A stretch of DNA of 64,000 nt from Candidatus Saccharimonadales bacterium. GTDB taxonomy: Bacteria; Patescibacteriota; Saccharimonadia; Saccharimonadales; SZUA-47. This document shows, one piece after another, positions 2 to 64,000 of the stretch. Under the pieces are notes generated by a model, which was not told the origin of the DNA, ran no database searches, and saw nothing but the letters and a program-made list of their open reading frames with translations. The stretch is from NCBI GenBank assembly GCA_041737385.1, contig JBGSRU010000002.1, forward strand, positions 333,437 to 397,436, written 5' to 3'. Made by a program: the position numbers and the translations under genes. How positions within the stretch are numbered: the stretch's first letter is position 1; every line of letters begins with the position of its first letter.

Positions 2-334
2 ATCGTAGTACGTTCAAATGAGTGGGTTGGCATTGATCGAATTGAAGCTTCAAGCATGCCGATATCTGATGAAGATAGACGTGGCTTACAATCTAGACGA
101 GACTTTCTGAGAAGCGAAGCTACAAGGAATCTAGCAATGTTTCTCTTGCTGGATAAGTTAATTGTAGAAAAAGTAATAGATTTTACTCCAAAATTATTCA
201 TAGAGCCAGACAATAGCCCAGGTAGTTTTGGCGATAGAGATGTGATATCAGGCGTTATCGACAAGAAAAAGCACCTTGACCCAGACGCTATACGAACCTT
301 AATAGAGTCATCTACTTCTTTTGTACGTCGATAA
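2..334 (+). CDS. hypothetical protein, 3' part of a gene running off the left edge
   Basis: The frame of ORF 56..334 stays open back to base 2 (…IVVRSNEWVGIDRIEASSM…), so the listed Met is probably internal. No motif recognised. Confidence 0.35.
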   Translation: MVVRSNEWVGIDRIEASSMPISDEDRRGLQSRRDFLRSEATRNLAMFLLLDKLIVEKVIDFTPKLFIEPDNSPGSFGDRDVISGVIDKKKHLDPDAIRTLIESSTSFVRR

Positions 335-11185: not shown

Positions 11186-12784
11186 TTATTTCTTCTTAAC
11201 AGATGGCTTCTTGGCAGATTTTTTAACAGTTTTTTTCGTGACTTTATTTTTAACTGGTTCGCGGACTCGAGCAGGTGATGTTACGAGTTTTTCCTCTTCT
11301 TTGAGTTGGTTGCCAAATTTTTTAATGAGGGCAGGTGCGATGAAGGTAGTGATGATGACAACAAGCACAATTGTGCTGAACAGCTCACTAGACAGTACGC
11401 CGAGAGCGCTACCTGTAGCTGCGAATATTAATCCTACTTCACCACGAGGGACCATTGAGACACCAACAAACATCTTTTCGGTTCTTGTACCTTGGGCTGC
11501 AAAACCAGCAACAAACTTAGAGGCTATAGCTATTACAGAAATAATACCTGCTGTTAGATACAGACCTGGATCTAGTAAAGAGCCGAAATCGATCTGTAAA
11601 CCGGTGAATACGAAGAACACAGGAATGAATATGAGGCCTATGCTGTTAATCAGATCTTCGATGTGTGAGTGACGGTGCTTCTTGATGATTGAAGCAACTG
11701 TTTCATCACCCTCAAGGTATTTGATGTCTTCAATAATTTCTGGATCTGAGAATGATTCAAAGTGAACCGCGTCTAACAAGAGTCCAGCAGCAAATGCACC
11801 AATGATTGGTTCAAGGCCAAACAGTTCAGCAAGGTAACCAAATACGAGTGCGAAACCAACAGCAAGTGTGAGTTTCATACCTATCCCAGTATGAATAGCA
11901 CTGAACAACTTTGAAATAGGTTTCGCAAGTAATCCACCCAAAACGATTGCTCCACCAAGGAAACCAAATGATTTAGCTGCTAGTTCTATGATGAGCGCTG
12001 GAGTTAGTTCGCCGCCAGCTGCAAGTGAAGATACGATTGCAAGCACGATAAGTCCGAGTACGTCATCGATTACGGCTGCGCCAAGTACTGTTTGAGCAGC
12101 ACGAGTCTTCGTAAGCTTTAGTGAACGGAAGACAGACGCAGTGATTCCAACACTGGTTGCAACAAGCGATGCACCCAAGAATAGTTGTGCATTAGAAGAA
12201 GCGTCACCGAAGAAAATAGGCGCGAGAACAAAAGATCCAAGTGAGAAGGGTATAACAACGCCAATCAAAGCAACCATAAGTGCTCGAACACCAACTTTTT
12301 GCATCTCTTTAGTATTTGATTCTAGTCCAATTGAAAACAGTAAGAGCAGTGCACCAAACTGTGCAAGGAAACTTATTATTTCATTTGCAGCAATCTCTCC
12401 GATAAAACCCCAGCCGAAATATCCAACAGCAGACAATGCAACACCAGCGAGTAGCTCACCAATGACGGCAGGCTGACCGTATTTTTCGACAAAGTTACCT
12501 AGCTTACCTGCAATCAAAACAAGCGCAAACATAGCGAATATGATGCCAAAATGATGCGCTCCGCCTTCAGAGTGCTCTTCGTCTTCAGTAGCAACTTCAT
12601 TATCAGTATAGTTTGCTTTTACTTCGTTTTCGCCAACATGCGAATCACCTTCATAAGAGCTGGATTCTTCAGCGACTGCGACTAACGAATAATCGTTAGC
12701 AGCGTTGACTGAATTAGTTTGTAAAACTACAAGAGGTACAGCCGCAAAGAGCAGTACTGCCAAACTGGCAATAAATCGTTTCAT
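11186..12784 (-). CDS. cation:proton antiporter (Na+/H+ exchanger family) with signal peptide, acidic/His N-terminal region and Lys-rich tail
   Basis: At least 10 TM helices with Na_H_exchanger-like blocks (IGELLAGVALS, GLESN, PRGEVGLI). The C-terminus reads KKTVKKSAKKPSVKKK. Confidence 0.8.
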   Translation of the reverse strand: MKRFIASLAVLLFAAVPLVVLQTNSVNAANDYSLVAVAEESSSYEGDSHVGENEVKANYTDNEVATEDEEHSEGGAHHFGIIFAMFALVLIAGKLGNFVEKYGQPAVIGELLAGVALSAVGYFGWGFIGEIAANEIISFLAQFGALLLLFSIGLESNTKEMQKVGVRALMVALIGVVIPFSLGSFVLAPIFFGDASSNAQLFLGASLVATSVGITASVFRSLKLTKTRAAQTVLGAAVIDDVLGLIVLAIVSSLAAGGELTPALIIELAAKSFGFLGGAIVLGGLLAKPISKLFSAIHTGIGMKLTLAVGFALVFGYLAELFGLEPIIGAFAAGLLLDAVHFESFSDPEIIEDIKYLEGDETVASIIKKHRHSHIEDLINSIGLIFIPVFFVFTGLQIDFGSLLDPGLYLTAGIISVIAIASKFVAGFAAQGTRTEKMFVGVSMVPRGEVGLIFAATGSALGVLSSELFSTIVLVVIITTFIAPALIKKFGNQLKEEEKLVTSPARVREPVKNKVTKKTVKKSAKKPSVKKK

Positions 12785-42922: not shown

Positions 42923-43008
42923 GCCGCGGTGGCGGAATTGGTATACGCGCACGACTCAAAATCGTGTTCCTTAACGGATTGAGGGTTCAAGTCCCTCCCG
43001 CGGCACCA
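42923..43008 (+). tRNA. tRNA-Leu (anticodon CAA), CCA encoded
   Basis: Hand-folded cloverleaf. Acceptor GCCGCGG/CCGCGGC. Anticodon stem CACGA/TCGTG with loop CTCAAAA. Long variable arm. T-arm GAGGG-TTCAAGT-CCCTC. Confidence 0.9.
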
Positions 43009-43137
43009 AATGAGATTGATACGTCAGACTTTAGAATCCTGTGAGCATTACGCTCGCAGAATGTAGGCAAGTCCGCCAAAGCGGTACCATGTTTTTCTGA
43101 CACATTACCTACTGACACTCAAAATGCTATACTGTTA

Positions 43138-56157: not shown

Positions 56158-56173
56158 AGGTCCCATCATCTAA
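56158..56173 (+). repeat. copy of the tRNA-Glu 5' end (AGGTCCCATCaTCTAA)
   Basis: 15 of 16 identical to 56528-56543, the start of the tRNA-Glu gene. Confidence 0.7.
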
Positions 56174-56197
56174 AGTAAGAAATGCCTGTGGCATTTA

Positions 56198-56295
56198 GCA
56201 AGGAGACTTTCTGAATCAAACTTGTTTTCAAAAGAGAAGTTACGGGTGAGACAATCCTGTGAATTGTCGCAAGGAGACTTTCTGAATCAAACTTG
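56198..56295 (+). repeat. two perfect 27-nt direct repeats (GCAAGGAGACTTTCTGAATCAAACTTG), each preceded by a short hairpin
   Basis: Copies at 56198-56224 and 56269-56295, period 71 nt. Preceding hairpins are AAATGCC-tgt-GGCATTT and GACAAT-cctgtga-ATTGTC. Confidence 0.8.
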
Positions 56296-56415
56296 CTTGA
56301 TATCATGAAATCTCGGGGTCGCTGAAAGTGACCGCTGAAAGTGGGTAGGACATCTTAACCGTCAAAAACATAGCGTTTTAAAAATCTTAATATATAATGT
56401 TGTTAAGTGTAGCTT

Positions 56416-56528: not shown

Positions 56529-56603
56529 GGTCCCATCGTCTAACGGTTAGGACACTAGATTCTCAATCTAGCAATACGAGTTCGATTCTCGTTGGGATCA
56601 CCA
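56529..56603 (+). tRNA. tRNA-Glu (anticodon CUC), CCA encoded
   Basis: Hand-folded. Acceptor GGTCCCA/TGGGATC. Anticodon stem CTAGA/TCTAG with loop TTCTCAA. T-arm ACGAG-TTCGATT-CTCGT. 75 nt. Confidence 0.9.
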
Positions 56604-56665
56604 TTTTAGTTTTACAAAGGTCAGAAAATCTGCAGTTCACGTATTTTCTATTTTGTGTCTTGGGA

Positions 56666-56695
56666 CAATAGTGAAAGAGTTCGACTCTTATTAGG
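56666..56695 (+). repeat. degenerate copy of the tRNA-Glu 3' half (T-arm-like hairpin AAGAG-TTCGA-CTCTT)
   Basis: CAATA…GAGTTCGA.TCT…TT.GG is collinear with the tRNA variable loop, T-arm and acceptor. It lies 63 nt after the tRNA. Confidence 0.5.
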
Positions 56696-56737
56696 TGTAT
56701 AATGTGGTAAATGAATAAAAAACTAACTATATAGTCT

Positions 56738-57259
56738 ATGGCGAATGAAATTTTATTCGAAACAACTATCGATAAATACGATTTTGGACCGTACTTTTAT
56801 ACAGTTGTTTATGTAGGCAGCGACATTACTGACCAGCTACCTATGGATAAGTATCCACGATTAAGAGTAGAGGCTACTGTTGACGGCTACCCTTCGAAGG
56901 GCGCGTTAATGCCTGACAAGATAGGCTCAAAACAAACAGAGCACCTGCTGAATAAAAGTTACACGAAACGTGGTGAAAGAATCTGGTATTTTCAGGTACC
57001 GAAGAAAGTACTTAAAGAAATATCGAAAGAACTTGGTGATTCTGTAGAGGTCAAAATAAGTGTGGGTAATCAAGATGAGGTCGAAATTCATCCAGCAATG
57101 GAGGATTTCTTAAGAGAAAACGATACAGTTAATCAAAAATGGGAAACATTGACTCCAGGAAAAAAGCGATCTTTAGCATACCCTGTGTTGAAAGCAAAAA
57201 CAGATATAACACTCGAGAAAAGACTTATAGAACTAGAGGAAGCATTACTCAACCTATGA
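56738..57259 (+). CDS. DUF1905 + YdeI/OmpD-associated-like protein
   Basis: N-terminal DUF1905-like beta domain. The C-terminal TPGKKRSLAYPVLKAKTDITLEKRL resembles the YdeI C-terminal motif. Confidence 0.55.
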   Translation: MANEILFETTIDKYDFGPYFYTVVYVGSDITDQLPMDKYPRLRVEATVDGYPSKGALMPDKIGSKQTEHLLNKSYTKRGERIWYFQVPKKVLKEISKELGDSVEVKISVGNQDEVEIHPAMEDFLRENDTVNQKWETLTPGKKRSLAYPVLKAKTDITLEKRLIELEEALLNL

Positions 57260-57421
57260 CAATCATTCCTTGAGAGGTTTTTTATAATTGAATCTCAAAA
57301 TAACTCTACAACAAACAATACTTTTCTTACGCTATGAGGCTCAGAAGCCTCTAAGCAAAAACGTATTTGGAGATTATATTCTTAAACTAATGATGCAAGA
57401 AATATAGACAATTAAAAACTA

Positions 57422-58096
57422 TTAGTTTATTTTACAGAATCTTTTAAAGTAATTTTGAAATTCAACTGCTGCTTTGTAGTCTTCTAGTATCGAAGGTAGT
57501 AAATCGTCTGATAGTGCTAAATCAATTGGATACTCTTTTCCATAAGTCCAAGTTTTATTTAAAATATACGGGTTTTTATTCAGTGAGCCTTCAAACTCTT
57601 TGGGAACTCGTTTGTTTCGTTCGCCGTTTACTCCACCCCAATGTTTATTAAATGTTTTTGACTTAATTATTTTCATAAATTCTTCTGGGTTTTCAGCCAT
57701 TGCTGATTGTATTTTATTTTTAATTGATGTACCGGGCATATACATGCCGCCTAATACTTGGATGTTATCTACGACTCCTAGAGATATCAAGTAGCCAGGC
57801 CAGGTGAATGTATCTGATTTATTAATTCCAAAAGCAACAGCCATGTTAGTCCGGTATGGTGCTTTATCTTTGCTGAAACGAACGTCTTTATTGATCCTAA
57901 GCATCGCATTCGGTCCATCAACTTCTATGTCTTGGTCAATCTTTTTCATACCTTCAAGCAAATCTGTACTAAATTTCTTAAACGGATCTCTGACAAACAT
58001 TTCGTACCCACTTCGATGCTCGTCAAACCACTCCTTATTATTATTCAGTGTTAAATTACCAAAAAATTCTATATATTTATTTGTAAAGTATTTCAT
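57422..58096 (-). CDS. DUF2461 (TIGR02453) family protein
   Basis: FFGNLTLNNNKEWFDEHRSGYE…RINKDVRFSKDKAPYRT pattern. Confidence 0.7.
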   Translation of the reverse strand: MKYFTNKYIEFFGNLTLNNNKEWFDEHRSGYEMFVRDPFKKFSTDLLEGMKKIDQDIEVDGPNAMLRINKDVRFSKDKAPYRTNMAVAFGINKSDTFTWPGYLISLGVVDNIQVLGGMYMPGTSIKNKIQSAMAENPEEFMKIIKSKTFNKHWGGVNGERNKRVPKEFEGSLNKNPYILNKTWTYGKEYPIDLALSDDLLPSILEDYKAAVEFQNYFKRFCKIN

Positions 58097-58129
58097 GTAA
58101 TTATCATAGCTAAATAAAAATATATTTGC

Positions 58130-58150
58130 AATACGATACCGTATCGTATT
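58130..58150. promoter_or_regulatory. perfect palindrome AATACGATAC-C-GTATCGTATT, candidate TetR operator
   Basis: 10-bp arms, 12 nt upstream of the MFS start, overlapping a TATTAT -10-like hexamer. A TetR gene is the next gene downstream of the MFS gene. Confidence 0.55.
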
Positions 58151-58161
58151 ATCATTTATTT

Positions 58162-59682
58162 ATGGAAATATTTACAAGATCTAACTCAAAACAAGCAATA
58201 CAAAAAAAGCGCTGGCTCATCCACGCAGTCATGAGTAGTGGGCTTTTACTCGTAATCATGTCAGTAAGCTCATTAAATGTCGCTATACCGACTTTAGTAC
58301 GCGAACTTGGGACTACATCAACTCAACTACAATGGATATTAGACAGTTACGCATTAGTCTTTGCAGGGCTACTATTTTTAGCCGGTTCAATTGGAGATAG
58401 ATATGGCAGAAAAGGTGCATTTCTAGCTGGAATGAGCGTTTTCGGAATTGCAAGTATCTTCGCTGGTTTAGCCGATACACCTCAACAGTTAATTGCAAGC
58501 CGTGCTCTGATGGGAGCTGGTGCAGCTTTTATTATGCCGGCAACACTGTCAATTATTGCAAACGTATTCACAGACAAAAGAGAACGAGCAAAAGCGGTAG
58601 CTATGTGGGCTGGGTTTGCTGGAGCGGGCGGTGCTATTGGCCCCGTAGTTGCTGGTACTTTACTCGAGTTCTTTTGGTACGGCTCAATATTTTTCGCTGC
58701 AATACCCGTTGTTATACTCTCTATGGCTTTGACAGTGTTATTCGTGCCGACCTCGATGGATCCTGAACATGAAAAACTCGATTGGACAGGTGCACTACTT
58801 TCAGTGGCAACAATCGGTGCATTACTCTACACCATTATCGAAGCGCCCGTTTACGGATGGGCTAGTATACACACACTTATCTCAGCGATTATTAGTATCG
58901 TCTTGTTTATTCTGTTTATTTTATGGGAGCGTAGAGTCAAACATCCTATGCTGCCACTTAGTTTCTTTTCATCTAAAAGATTTTCTATCGGTAGTTTGAC
59001 TTTAGTACTCACGTTCTTTGGATTATTTGGTTTGTTTTATGTCTTGACGCAATACTTGCAGTTTGTACAGGGTTATACAGCGCTGGAAGCGGCAATACGC
59101 ACATTGGTTATTGGTGGAGCATTAGTAGCTGTTTCTAAATACGTGACAAACTTTGAAGAGAAACTTGGGACACGAAAAGTTCTTACAGGAGGACTTATTA
59201 TTGTTGGCATTGCTTTTGTAATGCTAGCGCAATTAAACGCAGACACTTCAGTCTGGTATATTTTGGCTAGCTTAACAGTACTTGGAGGCGGCATGGGACT
59301 TGCAATGCCGACTGCTACAGAAGCTATTATAGGTTCTGTGCCAACTAGAAAAGCCGGGGTTGGTTCAGCAATGAATGACACAACACGTGAATTTGGAGGT
59401 GCACTTGGCATAGCGGTATTTGGAAGCTTACTTGCTTCTAACTATAGCTCAAACATCGCAAGTTCTCTATCAAATTTACCACAAGAAGCGCTAAAAACTG
59501 CTGAATCTTCAATTGGTGGGGCTTATGCAATTGCTGAAACATTACCCGAACAGGCTAATACAATTATTATGGCTGCTAATACTTCATTTATAGATAGCTT
59601 ATCCGTCATAATGTACATTGGTGCCTCAGTCATGGTCTTGGCTGCATTAATTGCTTACAATCTTATGGTTGATAATAAATAA
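58162..59682 (+). CDS. MFS transporter, DHA2 (EmrB/QacA-like, 14-TMS) drug:H+ antiporter family
   Basis: GSIGDRYGRK (motif A-like), and many TM helices over about 500 aa. The start is set to ATG 58162. Confidence 0.8.
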   Translation: MEIFTRSNSKQAIQKKRWLIHAVMSSGLLLVIMSVSSLNVAIPTLVRELGTTSTQLQWILDSYALVFAGLLFLAGSIGDRYGRKGAFLAGMSVFGIASIFAGLADTPQQLIASRALMGAGAAFIMPATLSIIANVFTDKRERAKAVAMWAGFAGAGGAIGPVVAGTLLEFFWYGSIFFAAIPVVILSMALTVLFVPTSMDPEHEKLDWTGALLSVATIGALLYTIIEAPVYGWASIHTLISAIISIVLFILFILWERRVKHPMLPLSFFSSKRFSIGSLTLVLTFFGLFGLFYVLTQYLQFVQGYTALEAAIRTLVIGGALVAVSKYVTNFEEKLGTRKVLTGGLIIVGIAFVMLAQLNADTSVWYILASLTVLGGGMGLAMPTATEAIIGSVPTRKAGVGSAMNDTTREFGGALGIAVFGSLLASNYSSNIASSLSNLPQEALKTAESSIGGAYAIAETLPEQANTIIMAANTSFIDSLSVIMYIGASVMVLAALIAYNLMVDNK

Positions 59683-59697
59683 GTTATACTTAGTGAA

Positions 59698-60276
59698 ATG
59701 GACCAACAAGATACAAGAATAGAGCTGTCTAAAAACAAGATAACCGAAGCGGCATTGGAATGGATGCTAGCTGATGGTATGGACGCCCTAAGCATCGATG
59801 GTCTCGTTAAACGATCTGGCGTAGCAAAGACAACCATATATCGTCATTTTGAATCGATAAACGATATACTTGCAGACACCATAATTAAAACACTTCCAAA
59901 ACAAAAATCTGTTGATACTGGCTCTATTATTACCGATATGGAGTTATTACTTGGCTATACTCGTCAATCATTTGAATCTGCAACATGGGGAAAGTTACTT
60001 GCCGATATAGTAAAGAAAACAATTCAAGACGAAGAATTTAGAAAAATAAAAGGCAAACACATGGCCCAAATGATGGATCCAATGAGAGTTGCAATAAAAC
60101 GCAGTATAGATAGGGGGGAAATTAACCCAGACATTCCAACTGAGAATGTTATTGTGCATATGATTGGGCCATGCTATTACGCCCATTTTGAATGTCCAGA
60201 TCTGTATAGAACAAAAAAAGACATCGATTTGATTGTGCACAACTCTTTGTCAGAATACTTAGTAAATAACCAGTAA
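59698..60276 (+). CDS. TetR/AcrR-family transcriptional regulator
   Basis: N-terminal HTH: LSIDGLVKRSGVAKTTIYRHFES. Confidence 0.85.
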   Translation: MDQQDTRIELSKNKITEAALEWMLADGMDALSIDGLVKRSGVAKTTIYRHFESINDILADTIIKTLPKQKSVDTGSIITDMELLLGYTRQSFESATWGKLLADIVKKTIQDEEFRKIKGKHMAQMMDPMRVAIKRSIDRGEINPDIPTENVIVHMIGPCYYAHFECPDLYRTKKDIDLIVHNSLSEYLVNNQ

Positions 60277-60292
60277 TGATTTTAAAAGTAAC

Positions 60293-60871
60293 ATGATAGA
60301 GACTGATAATTTTGAAAAGGTCATAATAAGTTCTAAGCAAGAATTAAGAAACTGGCTCTTGAAAAATAATGGACAAAGCGAAAGTGTGTGGATAGTTACT
60401 TACATGAAGCATATTGGTGATTGTTACGTCTCTAAAGAACAAATACTTGACGAGGTACTATGTTTTGGCTGGGTAGATGGCATTAGACGTAAATTAAATG
60501 ATAACCAGACTATGCAGCTAATCAGTAAACGCAAAGCTCAACATTGGGCTAGGTCATACAAAAAAAGAGTAGAGAACTTGGCTACTGCAAACCTAATGCA
60601 TGAGTCAGGAATTAAAAGCGTGGAAGAAAGCAAATCAAGTGGGCTATGGAATTTTATGGATGACGTCGATGACTTGATACTTCCTAATGATCTTAAACAG
60701 GAATTACTGAAAGCCCCACCAGCCTATTCTAACTTCATGTCATTTAACAATTCTTCAGTGCGAAATATGTTACGCAGAATCAAATTGACTAAAACTGAAA
60801 AAACTAGGATAAAGTACATTCAGCAAACGGTAAACCTTGCTAAATTAAATAAAAAAGTACCACAAACCTGA
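60293..60871 (+). CDS. YdeI/OmpD-associated family protein
   Basis: ELRNWLLKN…VWIV…ILDEVLCFGWVDGIRRKLND pattern, and a C-terminal LRRIKLTKTEKTRIKYIQ. Confidence 0.6.
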   Translation: MIETDNFEKVIISSKQELRNWLLKNNGQSESVWIVTYMKHIGDCYVSKEQILDEVLCFGWVDGIRRKLNDNQTMQLISKRKAQHWARSYKKRVENLATANLMHESGIKSVEESKSSGLWNFMDDVDDLILPNDLKQELLKAPPAYSNFMSFNNSSVRNMLRRIKLTKTEKTRIKYIQQTVNLAKLNKKVPQT

Positions 60872-60905
60872 CAGCCATAGCAACTAATTAATTTTAAACT
60901 TTTAC

Positions 60906-61130
60906 CTATAAACAATGTAATTCATCTTTACACATTATTTCTTTATAGATACTATGATCTAATATATTATGTGAACCTTCCCACACACTACTTTTGTAAA
61001 TTATTGCTAGTTTTCTATATCTTAAGCCATTAAATGTCATTACTGTAATTCCTGTATGCTCAAGAATCTTAACTACTATCATCGCTTGCTCCCTGAGACT
61101 TCCATCATGATGATTTGGATTTATAGTCAA
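60906..61130 (-). CDS. small hypothetical ORF (doubtful)
   Basis: 74 aa with a non-ATG start. No convincing motif. Confidence 0.25.
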   Translation of the reverse strand: MTINPNHHDGSLREQAMIVVKILEHTGITVMTFNGLRYRKLAIIYKSSVWEGSHNILDHSIYKEIMCKDELHCL

Positions 61131-61511
61131 TACTTTAACACTTAGACCTCTCTTTATTTTTTACGAGCACATGTTAGTGAACCTGGTGGCTCAGAGCCTA
61201 GTTATGTATGAGCTCACAATAATAACTTCGCGTTTTGCTTTCTTTATATCGGTACTGAAAGCTTTAAACTAGGAGTATTCATCAAAAAGCTCTGACTAGA
61301 CAGGGAAGTGATCTCTTTTTCTAAACATCTTTAAATTCCTCGAATTTCTCAAGACGTTTATCAAGCTTAATTAAATCATCGTAAAGCGAGTTCCACCCAT
61401 TTGCCGGCAGGCTCACCAAATAAAGTAGGTCACAAAAGTGGCCTTTTTTATTTGATGTCCTGACGAGCGATCGAGCTAAAAGAGTTCGCTAATCCCCCGA
61501 ATCTTTGATTC

Positions 61512-61548
61512 AGACGGGCGGATTCTTCCTATCTAGTTGGGATCACCA
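61512..61548 (+). repeat. left copy of the ~46-nt direct repeat (AGACGGGCGGATTCTTCCTAT…GGATCACCA)
   Basis: 21-nt exact core shared with 63871-63891. Both copies end in GGATCACCA. Confidence 0.75.
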
Positions 61549-61555
61549 GTGTTAG

Positions 61556-61580
61556 AGCCTCACGTTTATGTGGGGCTTTT
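61556..61580 (+). terminator. terminator-like hairpin after repeat unit 1
   Basis: AGCCTCA, loop, TGGGGCT (one G-U pair), then TTT. Confidence 0.45.
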
Positions 61581-61680
61581 ACACTTGTGGTTTCACTTGT
61601 GAAACCGAACTCGAGAGTTCGTTCAGCACCCAATACTCAAGCTGCTGGTACTCTTCTCGTTGGGATCACCAACTTAAGCA

Positions 61681-61702
61681 CTCACCCCCGTGGTGAGTTT
61701 TT
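61681..61702 (+). terminator. rho-independent terminator after repeat unit 2
   Basis: CTCACC, loop CCCGT, GGTGAG, TTTTT. Confidence 0.7.
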
Positions 61703-61862
61703 AAATTCACAGCCTCATCGAGGTCGAGCCAGAAGAGTTCGTTATTTATCAGTCGCTACGCTACAGACGTGCAACATTCATTTTAATTTGAAAAATATCT
61801 CTACCTGTACACCGAATTACGCTATATACATGGAGGAATTAAACAATTATGATTGGGGTTGA

Positions 61863-62363
61863 ATGAATGAAAATGATTTCTATAAAAAACTCTTAAAAAA
61901 CTTACACCGATTCTTTATGTCAAAAACTTTTGATATATCATTAAGTGAAGATTTAACGAGCGAAGTATTACTAACTGTTTATGAGCAATTCAAGATACAG
62001 CAAGGAAATTCGAATATCAAGGATAGAGAGAAGTATGTATATGGTATCGCAAAAAATGTTTGGCTTAGGTACCTTAGGTCAAAGTACTCAAACTTAGTTG
62101 ATTATGTTGAGAACGTCGAAGATTTTGAAAAATATGTCCTAAATTCAGTCGAAGAATATGAAAAGATGTCAATAATCCATAGGGCAGTCCCTTTTATTGA
62201 ACAACTACCTGAAAAGCAAAAACAGATATTACTGTTAAGGTTCAGGGATGGAATGAGTCTCAAAGAAATATGCAAAGCGACTGGTTCAAATATGAACTAT
62301 GTTAAAACTACCCAGAAAAGAGGAATCGCCTCATTGAAGAATAATATCCAAGGAGATAAATGA
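61863..62363 (+). CDS. sigma-70 family (ECF-like) RNA polymerase sigma factor
   Basis: Region 2-like YGIAKNVWLRYLR. Region 4 HTH: LPEKQKQILLLRFRDGMSLKEICKATGSNMNYVKTTQKRGIASLK. Confidence 0.8.
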   Translation: MNENDFYKKLLKNLHRFFMSKTFDISLSEDLTSEVLLTVYEQFKIQQGNSNIKDREKYVYGIAKNVWLRYLRSKYSNLVDYVENVEDFEKYVLNSVEEYEKMSIIHRAVPFIEQLPEKQKQILLLRFRDGMSLKEICKATGSNMNYVKTTQKRGIASLKNNIQGDK

Positions 62364-63745
62364 TGGAAAACAATGATTTAGAAAAATTATTTTCAGGAGA
62401 ACAACTTGAACCAAGTAAAAAATTCGAAAAACAATTACTCAATAGGCTCAGTAAAGATGCTAAAAATCCAAAGATATGGTTTTTTTATAAGCTGAGCAGC
62501 GTATTAGTTATCACACTGATGCTCATAGGCGTAGCTCTTTATCAACCAAACTCTGATAATTTGAGCAATACAGTTCTTCTTAAAGAGCTATACCAAAAGG
62601 CGTTGGCGGATGAACTACCAGAGTCAAATGATGTAAACTTCTGGAAAATAATCGGAGGTACAACTTATGGAGCACAAGCACCTCTTTGCACAAATACTGA
62701 ATCGGGTGTTTCCTATCAGAAGCTTTCATTGCTGTATAAAAACAATCAAGAGTCTGCGTATTTTAATACCAGCACAGAGCAATATACACAACCGTATATG
62801 AATTATAGCGATGATTCTGATATTCCCGCCTACGATGATTCCGTATTCACCGGTGCAAATTCATACGTTGTTCAACAATATCTAGCAAATACTTATCTTA
62901 CAAACGAAAACGGCAATAAACTAACTGATAACGCAACAACAGAAGTTAAAACCGAAGGATCTTACCTCGTGTATGCCAAACTAGAAACACCAAGTTCGGA
63001 TGTAAAGAACTTCGTAGACGGATGTAATAATCTACAGATAAAAATTGAGATTGATGCAGAGACAGGATTATACGAGTCTATCTACATTTACAATGTTTCA
63101 AACAATAGTAAGTTAGATGAAGCAAACCTTAGTTTTTCGCTCTTTCAGCAGATTGAAACTGCTAGTTTCGCGAGCTTTTCTGATGTTGATGAAGAATTTA
63201 TCTCTGAGGGATTTGATCTTGAAACCGCACGATCAAATACCTTGAATAATTCCTACTCCCGAATAGTAAACAAAGAAGCAGGTTTCGAATTTTGGTATGA
63301 CAAACCACTGCTTGGCAAGTCAGAATTAAAATTAAGTCGTGATAATAACGGAAATGTGACGTCGTATCAATATGTCTTTTTGAAACATCCAGAAGTAACC
63401 TACATTATATACACATCATTCGCTAGAGACGTCATAAATTTGGAAGAGAAAATAGTTTTAGATAATCTAGAAGTTGTTACTAGAAACACTGGTGAGTTTA
63501 AGTTGCCCGGGTATGGAGAAGTAACGAGTACTTATTTGACAGCAAAAAATGACACTACAAAATACCAACTATCGATAACTGGCTCGACTGATATCATTGC
63601 GGTATATATTGAGGCTCCCCTTGAGCTGGGAGTATCAACAAAAGTAGATAAAAATGCCCCAGATTTTCCATATATAGAGGACAAAATATTGTCTATGATC
63701 GTCAGTGTATTTCCTCCTAATACAGACCCACCGAGTGGGCTATAA
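62360..63745 (+). CDS. single-pass membrane protein coupled to the sigma factor (putative anti-sigma/partner)
   Basis: ATGA overlap with the sigma gene. Short cytoplasmic N-terminus, a TM (YKLSSVLVITLMLIGVALY), and a large extracytoplasmic domain. Confidence 0.5.
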   Translation: MMENNDLEKLFSGEQLEPSKKFEKQLLNRLSKDAKNPKIWFFYKLSSVLVITLMLIGVALYQPNSDNLSNTVLLKELYQKALADELPESNDVNFWKIIGGTTYGAQAPLCTNTESGVSYQKLSLLYKNNQESAYFNTSTEQYTQPYMNYSDDSDIPAYDDSVFTGANSYVVQQYLANTYLTNENGNKLTDNATTEVKTEGSYLVYAKLETPSSDVKNFVDGCNNLQIKIEIDAETGLYESIYIYNVSNNSKLDEANLSFSLFQQIETASFASFSDVDEEFISEGFDLETARSNTLNNSYSRIVNKEAGFEFWYDKPLLGKSELKLSRDNNGNVTSYQYVFLKHPEVTYIIYTSFARDVINLEEKIVLDNLEVVTRNTGEFKLPGYGEVTSTYLTAKNDTTKYQLSITGSTDIIAVYIEAPLELGVSTKVDKNAPDFPYIEDKILSMIVSVFPPNTDPPSGL

Positions 63746-63870
63746 AATATCACAATCTGTAAGAAACTTAAGCCGATCAATATTGCATTATGTGTAGATA
63801 CAGACAAAAAGCATGATCTCTAGTCAAACAGAACCCTAAAGAGCCTGCTAAGCCTGCAAACTTTAGCTTA

Positions 63871-63907
63871 AGACGGGCGGATTCTTCCTATTCGCTCAGG
63901 ATCACCA
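63871..63907 (+). repeat. right copy of the ~46-nt direct repeat
   Basis: AGACGGGCGGATTCTTCCTAT, then TCGCTCAGGATCACCA. Confidence 0.75.
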
Positions 63908-64000
63908 AAGAAGAATTTTCAGACGATAAGGCTTTAGAAAAAGGATTCTTCTCTGTAAAAAAGGTGTGTTTCGTGTTTGAATTTTTATAATTTCATAGCT

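Follow-up and report, generated by a model that had tools for sequence, protein, structure and literature searches.

The tRNA-Glu locus and its flanking repeats

Contig JBGSRU010000002.1 of a Candidatus Saccharimonadales bacterium (assembly GCA_041737385.1) carries a tRNA-Glu(CUC) gene that is followed by a small island, here termed E1, and by four tRNA-like sequence units, U1 to U4. Two of these, U1 and U4, form a long direct repeat around a 2359-bp segment in which an extracytoplasmic function (ECF)-type sigma factor and a membrane protein partner are the only genes encoded. The window analysed is the whole stretch of 64,000 nt (positions 333,437 to 397,436 of the forward strand), which ends 93 nt past U4; its features are collected in Table 1. 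Contigs of relatives, labelled L001-L021, were used for comparison. The nearest homologues of the flanking histidine kinase come from Candidatus Saccharibacteria and are at most 73% identical, the value of the closest relative compared, and none of the relatives is of the same species.

The two repeat copies were recovered by a repeat search as 61479-61548 and 63838-63907, 70 nt each, with 74% ungapped identity and a start-to-start distance of 2359. They share an exact 21-mer, AGACGGGCGGATTCTTCCTAT, at 61512-61532 and 63871-63891, which occurs twice in the 64 kb even when three mismatches are permitted and is absent from all 100 dinucleotide shuffles of the window. Local alignment of the full 94-nt units U1 and U4 gives a score of 56, compared with 13.3 +/- 2.0 for shuffles (z = 21). 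The block of identity is this 21-nt core, composed of the 3' arm of a hairpin plus 8 nt, and it lies outside the segment that is identical to the tRNA; its last 8 nt, CTTCCTAT, are common to U1 and U4 only. The motif GGATCACCA was found five times in the window against an expectation of 0.24, and its four plus-strand occurrences fall at the end of tRNA-Glu (56595) and at the ends of three units (61540, 61663 and 63899), although its neighbourhood differs between U1 and U4. Copies of the tRNA 3' end, all in the same orientation on the plus strand, lie at 61388-61418, 61530-61548, 61654-61671 and 63892-63907.

These results bear out most of what a sequence-only reading of the window had described, namely an imperfect direct repeat with a 21-nt exact core and 2359-bp spacing, although the repeat is 70 nt long rather than the approximately 46 nt proposed. 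Both copies end in the tRNA-Glu-like motif as that reading had stated (GGATCACCA at 61540 and 63899, as at the end of the tRNA itself). The map of genes and units likewise agrees with its account of the bracketed content: U2 and U3, a sigma-70 region 2/4 protein and an overlapping membrane protein of 461 aa.

Table 1. Features downstream of tRNA-Glu(CUC) in the 64,000-nt window
Feature	Position	Strand	Basis and remarks
tRNA-Glu(CUC)	56529..56603	+	ARAGORN; Rfam tRNA 64.3 bits; anchors the variable region
Island E1	56604..61418	+	Pfam: DUF1905/OmdA, DUF2461, MFS transporter, TetR, OmdA; without recombinase
(ii)-type site GAGTTCCACCCATTTGCCGGCAGGCTCACCA	61388..61418	+	Aligns with L009 4137-4167; attR-like right end of a serine-recombinase element family
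Terminator hairpin and T run	61427..61449	+	Terminator scan; positional homologue in L009
U1 (copy 1), attL-like	61455..61548	+	Covariance model, 82 bits
Terminator-like hairpin GAGCCTCACGTTTATGTGGGGCTTTT after U1	61555..61580	+	Read from the sequence; failed the strict terminator scan
U2, second unit type	61583..61671	+	CAGC..GCTG hairpin at T-loop position; covariance model weak, 20.9 bits
Terminator after U2	61680..61703	+	Terminator scan
U3, degenerate	~61716..61795	+	Local alignment, z = 6.7; missed by the covariance model
Cassette promoter/leader (TGTACACC ... CTATATACAYGGAGG ... TATGATTGG)	61806..61862	+	Conserved in the window, L011 and L012
ECF-type (group 4-like) sigma factor, 166 aa	61863..62363	+	Pfam
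Membrane partner, 461 aa	62360..63745	+	Open reading frame list; no Pfam family
U4 (copy 2), attR-like	63814..63907	+	Covariance model, 68 bits
Inverted repeat AGAAGAAT ... ATTCTTCT	63909..63952	+	Directly 3' of U4; sequence reading only

Architecture and distribution of the tRNA-like units

The template that the units mimic is the 3' end of tRNA-Glu, which reads ...TTCTCGTTGGGATCACCA / ...GAGTTCGATTCTCGTTGGGATCACCA / ...ACGAGTTCGATTCTCGTTGGGATCACCA. The final 18 nt of U2 reproduce it completely (18/18), the end of U1 agrees with it at 16 of 17 positions, and U4 has the last 9 nt in common with it. Further upstream, AGAGTTCG is present in U1, U2 and U3 and resembles the 5' strand of the T stem together with the start of the T loop. 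U1 and U4 hold about 45 extra nucleotides between GTTCG and the 3' strand of the T stem; therefore, the units mimic the 3' half of a tRNA and carry an insert at the site of the T loop. U3 retains a 5' part, TCGAGCCAGAAGAGTTCGTTA, that equals U1 at 18 of 21 positions, while its hairpin and CCA end have decayed.

The insert folds alike in U1 and in the units of L006, L009 and L011, with an outer stem (AATCCCCCG/CGGG(C)GGATT), a bulged C, an A-rich bulge of 4-5 nt, an inner stem and a triloop. Direct reading shows 5-7 perfect pairs in the inner stem, the sequence of which is wholly different among the copies. As DNA folds, these hairpins have z-scores of -2.35 to -4.3, with U1 at -2.35, and U4 is unable to form the family hairpin (z = +1.1). 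Whole units fold no better than their shuffles (z = -0.6, -0.9, -0.2 and 0.0), the corresponding value for a real tRNA being -3.1. When the window was searched with ARAGORN and Rfam, only two real tRNAs were reported, and Rfam gave no match to the units even at E <= 1. Identification of the units as tRNA pseudogenes, tRNAs with a long variable arm or ends of transfer-messenger RNA (tmRNA) was rejected, as neither program called them and their T arm cannot form. The hairpin could represent arm architecture or a single-strand site, or it could be a miniature insertion or an RNA. An insertion of this miniature kind, specific to the T loop and akin to IS200/IS605 or repetitive extragenic palindromic (REP) elements, is neither supported nor contradicted, no transposase having been seen and the sequences compared offering no uninserted copy of the fragment.

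To locate further members, a covariance model built on five copies (U1 and U4 of the window and the units of L006, L009 and L011) was scanned over 226 kb. The five copies scored 68-82 bits, and the remaining matches were weak ones to U2 and to true tRNA ends. Because the matches are restricted to tRNA-adjacent positions, the unit is not a dispersed repeat, a possibility that the sequence-only reading had named as fatal to its proposal. Viral contigs scanned for the 21-mer, the hairpin pattern and the recombinase gave no matches.

In relatives, U1-type hairpin units occupy three settings. The unit of L009 (4256-4335) lies just past a recombinase element and its terminator; that of L006 (2978-3052) sits within the host tRNA-Glu and disrupts it; and that of L011 (1531-1609, minus strand) follows a tRNA-Met and its terminator. 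The T-stem and acceptor parts of the L011 unit match tRNA-Met, not tRNA-Glu. In addition, the hairpin that follows U1, GAGCCTCACGTTTATGTGGGGCTTTT, is near-identical to the one found after tRNA-Met in L011, GTCTCACATTTATGTGGGGCTTTTTT. A homologue of U2 was detected in L005 directly after tRNA-Glu and its terminator; its hairpin shows one compensatory pair relative to that of U2, and the tRNA-like parts of the L005 copy follow that genome's own tRNA.

Two of these neighbourhoods show further rearrangement. In L006 (2935-3160), the hairpin insert breaks into the resident tRNA-Glu at the T loop, this tRNA stops short after the T stem, and a second complete tRNA-Glu with its own promoter-like sequence stands 45 nt on, beside a recombinase gene; judging from this layout, the L006 element appears to bring a replacement tRNA. 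In L010, a distal copy of the tRNA-Glu 3' end (273-321, minus strand) lies 5.2 kb from the tRNA and has TCTAGTTGGGATCACCA in common with the right arm of U1 (17/17). The DNA between this copy and the tRNA includes a histidyl-tRNA synthetase-like gene.

Chimeric arms of U1 and U4

Positions 61388-61548 of the window align piecewise with 4137-4335 of L009, through the (ii)-type site ending in TCACCA, the motif AA.TAAAG, a terminator and a hairpin unit. L009 has a single unit at the position orthologous to U1, with a rimK-like gene following it, and U1 is, as this alignment reads, its positional orthologue. The L009 unit was the reference for the analysis of chimerism, with partial support from L006.

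U1 joins a left arm of the ancestral type, with an intact hairpin (AATCCCCCG..CGGGCGGATT), through the core at 61512-61532 to a right arm, CTAGTTGGGATCACCA, of the other type. U4 is composed the opposite way, with a divergent left arm that forms no stable hairpin, the core at 63871-63891 and a right arm, TCGCTCAGGATCACCAAA, of the ancestral type. On the left, U1 is identical to L009 at 17 of 18 positions and to L006 at 18 of 18, whereas U4 matches L009 at 10 of 18. On the right, U4 matches L009 at all 18 positions, including CCAAA, and U1 at 10. Fifteen sites are informative, and they partition completely: U1 is favoured by seven of seven on the left and U4 by eight of eight on the right (Fisher p = 3.3e-4). 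For the left arm, L006 and L011 likewise side with U1. When each arm was compared with L009 against 1000 shuffles, U1-left and U4-right beat 1000/1000 of them; U4-left showed no match (900/1000) and U1-right a weak one (16/1000).

Since the left arm of U1 and the right arm of U4 match L009 and the core is shared between them, the pair carries the signature of attL and attR, as left when a circle inserts into a single site. An origin of the U4 left arm in incoming DNA would account for its lack of a hairpin. U1 and U4 thus flank the segment as hybrids of a resident and an incoming site, with 15/15 sites partitioned between them. The incoming site can be reconstructed from U4-left and U1-right; equating it with the distal site of L010 is not claimed, as the right arms agree (16/16) and the left arm match is not significant (178/1000 shuffles).

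The sigma factor and its membrane partner

The protein encoded first in the segment matches Sigma70_r4_2 (2.2e-9) and Sigma70_r4 (7.9e-8), with region 4 scoring 37.3 bits against a cut-off of 25.7; its Sigma70_r2 score of 21.1 bits falls just under the cut-off of 24. The protein, of 166 aa, is read as a sigma factor with regions 2 and 4 only, as in the ECF type. The start codon of the partner overlaps the sigma stop codon by 4 nt (ATGA), and the partner has one hydrophobic segment at approximately residues 40-62. A Pfam scan found no domain in the partner, including no recognisable anti-sigma domain; from the gene arrangement, it would be an anti-sigma factor. Only three protein clusters among 5.8 billion match it.

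The cassette is missing from the tRNA-Glu loci of all relatives examined, and two homologues were found elsewhere, one in L011 beside tRNA-Met and the Met-flavoured unit and the other in L012 between FKBP and metK. The three cassettes therefore occupy three different contexts, of which that in L011 is again next to a tRNA and a hairpin unit. The 57 nt upstream of the operon are conserved in L011 and L012, and the similarity ends about 10 nt after U3. A promoter-like TATACA-17-TATGAT at 61825-61853 overlaps this conserved leader. Taking TATGAT as the -10 box would leave the sigma mRNA with almost no leader. The ATG within the conserved TATGATTGG (61848-61865) opens a frame of five codons only (MIGVE).

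Besides the operon, the 2359-bp segment contains two gene-less modules of unit plus terminator and is thus composite. Its order is the right arm of U1 with the following hairpin, U2 with its terminator, the decayed U3 and the operon.

The variable region and serine recombinases at tRNA-Glu

Upstream of the tRNA, the backbone order PEGA, glutamyl-tRNA synthetase, DUF3048, kinase, response regulator and tRNA-Glu is common to L016 and L020. The DNA 3' of tRNA-Glu differs in all nine relatives compared for it (L001, L003, L005, L006, L007, L009, L010, L020 and L021). The GC content is 0.424 in the backbone, 0.368 in E1 and 0.364 in the 2359-bp segment, and the drop begins at the tRNA. E1 lies below every backbone window of equal size, and only 0.4% of such windows are as low as the segment. 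As both the gene order and the GC content break at the tRNA, the tRNA marks the edge of a variable region, and the DNA 3' of it was probably acquired.

E1 separates the CCA end of the tRNA from what was formerly its terminator; we infer that the hairpin at 61427-61449 was this original terminator before E1 arrived. After the (ii)-type site, both the window and L009 continue with CCAA.TAAAG and then a terminator, and the (ii)-type site is also present in L016 and L017. The conserved distal end (...GTTCCA..AGG.TCACCA plus terminator) aligns window 61388-61449 with L009 4137-4200 and concerns E1, not the sigma segment. E1 and the L009 recombinase element thus have homologous right ends, and by this alignment the 4.8-kb E1 occupies the position of that element and has lost the recombinase.

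The L009 enzyme is a serine recombinase of 547 aa (Resolvase, Recombinase and Zn ribbon) encoded at 58-1701 on the minus strand, the last codons of which are tRNA-Glu antisense. Large serine recombinases with a 3' end overlapping tRNA-Glu on the opposite strand were found in L009, L006 (3120-3648) and L013-L019. Those of L006 and L013-L019 are 64-92% identical to that of L009 despite different tRNA-Glu sequences, and more than 200 homologues exist. The last 10-15 codons are read from the tRNA-Glu antisense strand, and the C-terminal tail accordingly varies with the host tRNA. In the window, such an overlapping recombinase is not present, or at most as a short remnant. Recombinases were sought with Pfam in the genes of 56.6-64 kb and in 20 recombinase-sized upstream open reading frames, and with tblastn over the whole window using the L009 serine recombinase as the query. 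The tblastn search returned a C-terminal remnant of 32 residues (56563-56679, E = 0.004), which is partly tRNA antisense. No tyrosine recombinase was detected in any Pfam scan of the window.

At their distal ends, the recombinase elements of relatives carry more copies resembling the tRNA 3' end, namely the (ii)-type site in L009, L016 and L017 and, in L014, an exact 19-nt repeat 8.9 kb from tRNA-Glu. The 8.9-kb island of L014/L015 (2700-11670) encodes a ThsB-like TIR protein, PIN, Fic, ParE/antitoxin, NUDIX, deaminase, RadC and a radical SAM protein, cargo that looks like defence and toxin-antitoxin functions as far as the gene content indicates.

A further element lies just 5' of tRNA-Glu, at 56159-56363. 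Its parts are the 5' end of the tRNA itself (GGTCCCATCATCTAAAG), an insert of 100-190 nt that is structured, and GGTAGGACATC..., which corresponds to the 3' side of the D arm plus the anticodon stem; the insert comprises a hairpin, GCAAGG and GAAAACTTGTTTTC. The element was also found in L001 (~12150-12290), L003 (15340-15490, minus strand), L005 (2047-2190), L007, L010, L020 (8340-8470) and L021 (4985-5115). Its tRNA-like ends follow the tRNA-Glu of each genome, and it has no Rfam match. L021 has the insert in inverted orientation as well, next to a 3' fragment that matches it, and a tRNA-Glu of a second type separates the pieces. The element could be a split or decayed tRNA copy or a new RNA. 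Inside it, the window holds an exact 27-nt direct repeat, GCAAGGAGACTTTCTGAATCAAACTTG, at 56198-56224 and 56269-56295 (spacing 71 nt), which appears to be a local duplication and is not seen in relatives.

Two weaker candidates for tRNA-end copies were noted in the window. A possible degenerate copy, "U0" (56674-56701), was not counted as a unit, since its alignments are weak (z of approximately 2.8-2.9). About 60 nt after tRNA-Leu(CAA) (42923-43008), GGCAAGTCCGCCAAAGCGGTACCA at 43066-43089 resembles the 3' end of that tRNA, TTCAAGTCCCTCCCGCGGCACCA, and may by this resemblance be a further attachment (att)-like fragment at a second tRNA.

Origin of the repeat pair

We consider it fairly probable that the repeat pair records one insertion of the Campbell type, into a pseudo-att site derived from a tRNA and amid an accretion of islands, and that this insertion left a recombinase-less module resembling a cis-mobilisable element (CIME). 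Under this proposal, tRNA-Glu(CUC) would be an integration hot spot at which remnants of islands have accreted, delimited by units in the same orientation. A circular DNA with a related site would have recombined with the resident unit just past the tRNA's terminator, by a crossover within the 21 nt that U1 and U4 now share exactly. The products would be attL (U1) and attR (U4) around an insertion of 2359 bp, which would have carried the U2 and U3 modules and an autonomous operon with its own promoter for the ECF-type sigma factor and its translationally coupled partner. We infer that a site-specific recombinase, rather than homologous recombination, made the insertion. Because the segment lacks a recombinase, it would be decayed or mobilisable in cis or trans, as CIMEs are, and not self-mobile.

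The sequence-only reading had also proposed an insertion, with the tRNA end as the target; the insertion is retained here, and the target is instead a tRNA-derived pseudo-site with the probable crossover in the 21-nt core. Its description of a "minimal mobile cassette" holds to the extent that a past insertion is likely. It does not extend to present mobility, of which there is no sign. No recombinase was found in the scans of the window, and the segment is composite.

Several observations count against the insertion of a circle at U1. Neither the genes of 56.6-64 kb nor the 20 other open reading frames scanned with Pfam encode a recombinase. The "ancestral" state is defined by one orthologous unit, that of L009, with partial support from L006. 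The right arm of U1 equals the true tRNA end at 16 of 17 positions, and gene conversion from the tRNA could explain part of the chimerism. When the incoming site is reconstructed from U4-left and U1-right, its left arm does not significantly match any site found elsewhere, and a crossover within one hairpin arm is an unusual geometry for tRNA-targeting tyrosine or serine integrases. Finally, the relatives compared, with at most 73% identity in the kinase, include no same-species empty site and no circular junction.

The most serious competitor, which we nevertheless judge rather unlikely, is serial stacking, in which separate elements integrated one by one at the tRNA's CCA end, displaced the earlier ones outward and each left a unit as its right end. 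The sigma operon would then belong to an element spanning U3 to U4, and the likeness of U1 and U4 would stem from two elements of the same family rather than from the two junctions of one event. The regular spacing of the units, each followed by a hairpin or terminator, fits such a history, as do the gene-less modules of terminator and unit directly after tRNAs in L005, L009 and L011 and the start of the cassette homology right after U3. Stacking is also documented for tycheposons and for the ssrA islands of Dehalococcoides. Neither the reciprocal chimerism of U1 and U4 with respect to L009 (p = 3e-4) nor the 8-nt tail CTTCCTAT that only these two units possess is predicted by stacking, and U3, which has no CCA end, is too decayed for a test.

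Local duplication by unequal crossing-over or slippage, with a resident operon and with arms shaped by differential decay and gene conversion from the tRNA, is very unlikely. The tandem array U1-U2-U3 does point to local repeat dynamics, and the near-identity of the U1 right arm to the tRNA end (16/17) suits gene conversion. Yet the segment is AT-rich like the neighbouring island, the cassette is absent at the tRNA-Glu loci of relatives and stands in other contexts elsewhere, and a complete partition of sites (7:0 and 0:8) is not to be expected from independent decay.

Still less credit is due to the idea that the units encode small structured RNAs of tRNA-like form, transcribed together with the tRNA or after it, in which case the repeat would mark an RNA family and not recombination sites. 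This would account for the conserved hairpin architecture, for inner stems that are perfect yet different in sequence in four genomes, for the compensatory pair in the U2/L005 hairpin and for units that end in CCA and are followed by terminators. Set against these features are the lack of any Rfam family match even at E <= 1, whole-unit folds no better than shuffles and the loss of the hairpin in U3 and U4. Moreover, the tRNA-like arms follow the adjacent tRNA, Glu or Met, which is the behaviour of att sites and of displaced fragments. Chance similarity or a generic dispersed repeat, for which the analysis yielded no supporting point, can be practically dismissed given the 0/100 shuffles with the 21-mer, the unit alignment (z = 21), the restriction of covariance-model matches to tRNA neighbourhoods in 226 kb and the viral contigs without matches.

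A bold and on balance improbable prospect is that the unit, with its stem-loop of conserved outer stem, bulged base and freely varying inner stem in place of the T loop, is a dedicated recombination site and not a scar. Matching unit variants would then exist for different tRNAs, Glu in the window and Met in L011. Saccharibacteria would capture and exchange small recombinase-less cassettes, the sigma/partner operon among them, in arrays 3' of tRNAs, with the recombinase supplied in trans from elsewhere, in an integron-like, tRNA-anchored system of a candidate phyla radiation (CPR) bacterium. If the units are functional sites, they would offer a compact, sequence-defined landing pad that could help the development of genetic tools for Saccharibacteria; if they are only scars, the locus is an ordinary but clear example of island accretion. 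Saccharibacteria are epibionts with tiny genomes that are barely tractable genetically, and gene gain and loss in them are poorly documented. Here, a tRNA-Glu hot spot would have collected small islands, a module of sigma factor and partner would have arrived as a discrete 2.4-kb unit, and a widespread family of large serine recombinases physically overlaps tRNA-Glu in relatives.

Comparison with known systems

Several accounts exist of islands in tandem that carry repeated 3' fragments of tRNA or tmRNA and include decayed members (PMC4383910; PMC2764846; bioRxiv 10.1101/2020.12.28.424599; PMC5704250). The islands catalogued by Islander (Hudson et al., 2015; PMC4383910) resemble the present locus in having an intact tRNA and same-orientation 3' fragments that bound compositionally deviant blocks, several of them in tandem. 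The window provides the tRNA and the 3' fragment, as well as variable presence, judged from relatives that are not of the same species, and deviant GC content; an integrase inside the element is not found. The blocks of the window differ further in that the block of identity lies outside the tRNA-identical segment and a hairpin stands at the T-loop position. Furthermore, the enzyme of the relatives is a large serine recombinase, and serine recombinases were not known to target tRNA genes according to the Islander paper (Hudson et al., 2015).

The ssrA islands of Dehalococcoides carry up to 11 copies of a direct repeat of about 20 bp downstream of the target, with traces of similarity around each (McMurdie et al., 2009; PMC2764846). 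Like the present locus, they reflect serial integration at the 3' end of one small RNA in a streamlined genome, with a recombinase cluster beside the target and many modules without a recombinase. They differ in their tmRNA target and reductive dehalogenase cargo, and no hairpin pseudo-site was described for them.

Accretion, in which a newcomer integrates into a resident's att site and a tandem results, has been set out for CIMEs (Pavlovic, 2004; Bellanger, 2011; reviewed in PMC5704250). The 2359-bp segment shares with CIMEs its retained attL and attR, the loss of integration genes and the tandem position, and by analogy it would be mobilisable in cis or trans in principle. CIMEs, in contrast, derive from conjugative elements of Firmicutes, and no genes or remnants for conjugation or integration are visible in the 2359-bp segment. 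Tycheposons of Prochlorococcus, a minority of which use a large serine recombinase (Hackl et al., bioRxiv 10.1101/2020.12.28.424599), are similar in their small host genomes, in islands that grow beside tRNAs by repeated integration, and in flanking partial tRNAs and scattered remnants. They have their own integrase and often replication genes, whereas the segment of the window has no such genes.

The cassettes of integrons are also short cargo modules that end in an imperfect hairpin, attC, in which the outer stem is conserved, one base is extrahelical and the inner stem-loop varies. The likeness is one of resemblance only: the window has no intI, attI or Pc, the cassette has its own promoter, and the units are tRNA mimics. 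Membership among attC sites was rejected, as the hairpin base, CTAATCCCCCG ... CGGGCGGATT, on reading the sequence fits neither R'' (RYYYAAC) nor R' (GTTRRRY).

Direct repeats of tRNA 3' ends that bound islands, tandem arrays of such islands and decayed members among them are thus textbook knowledge already. What the present locus adds is the host lineage, the serine recombinase family at the tRNA-Glu of relatives and a conserved hairpin unit as the target.

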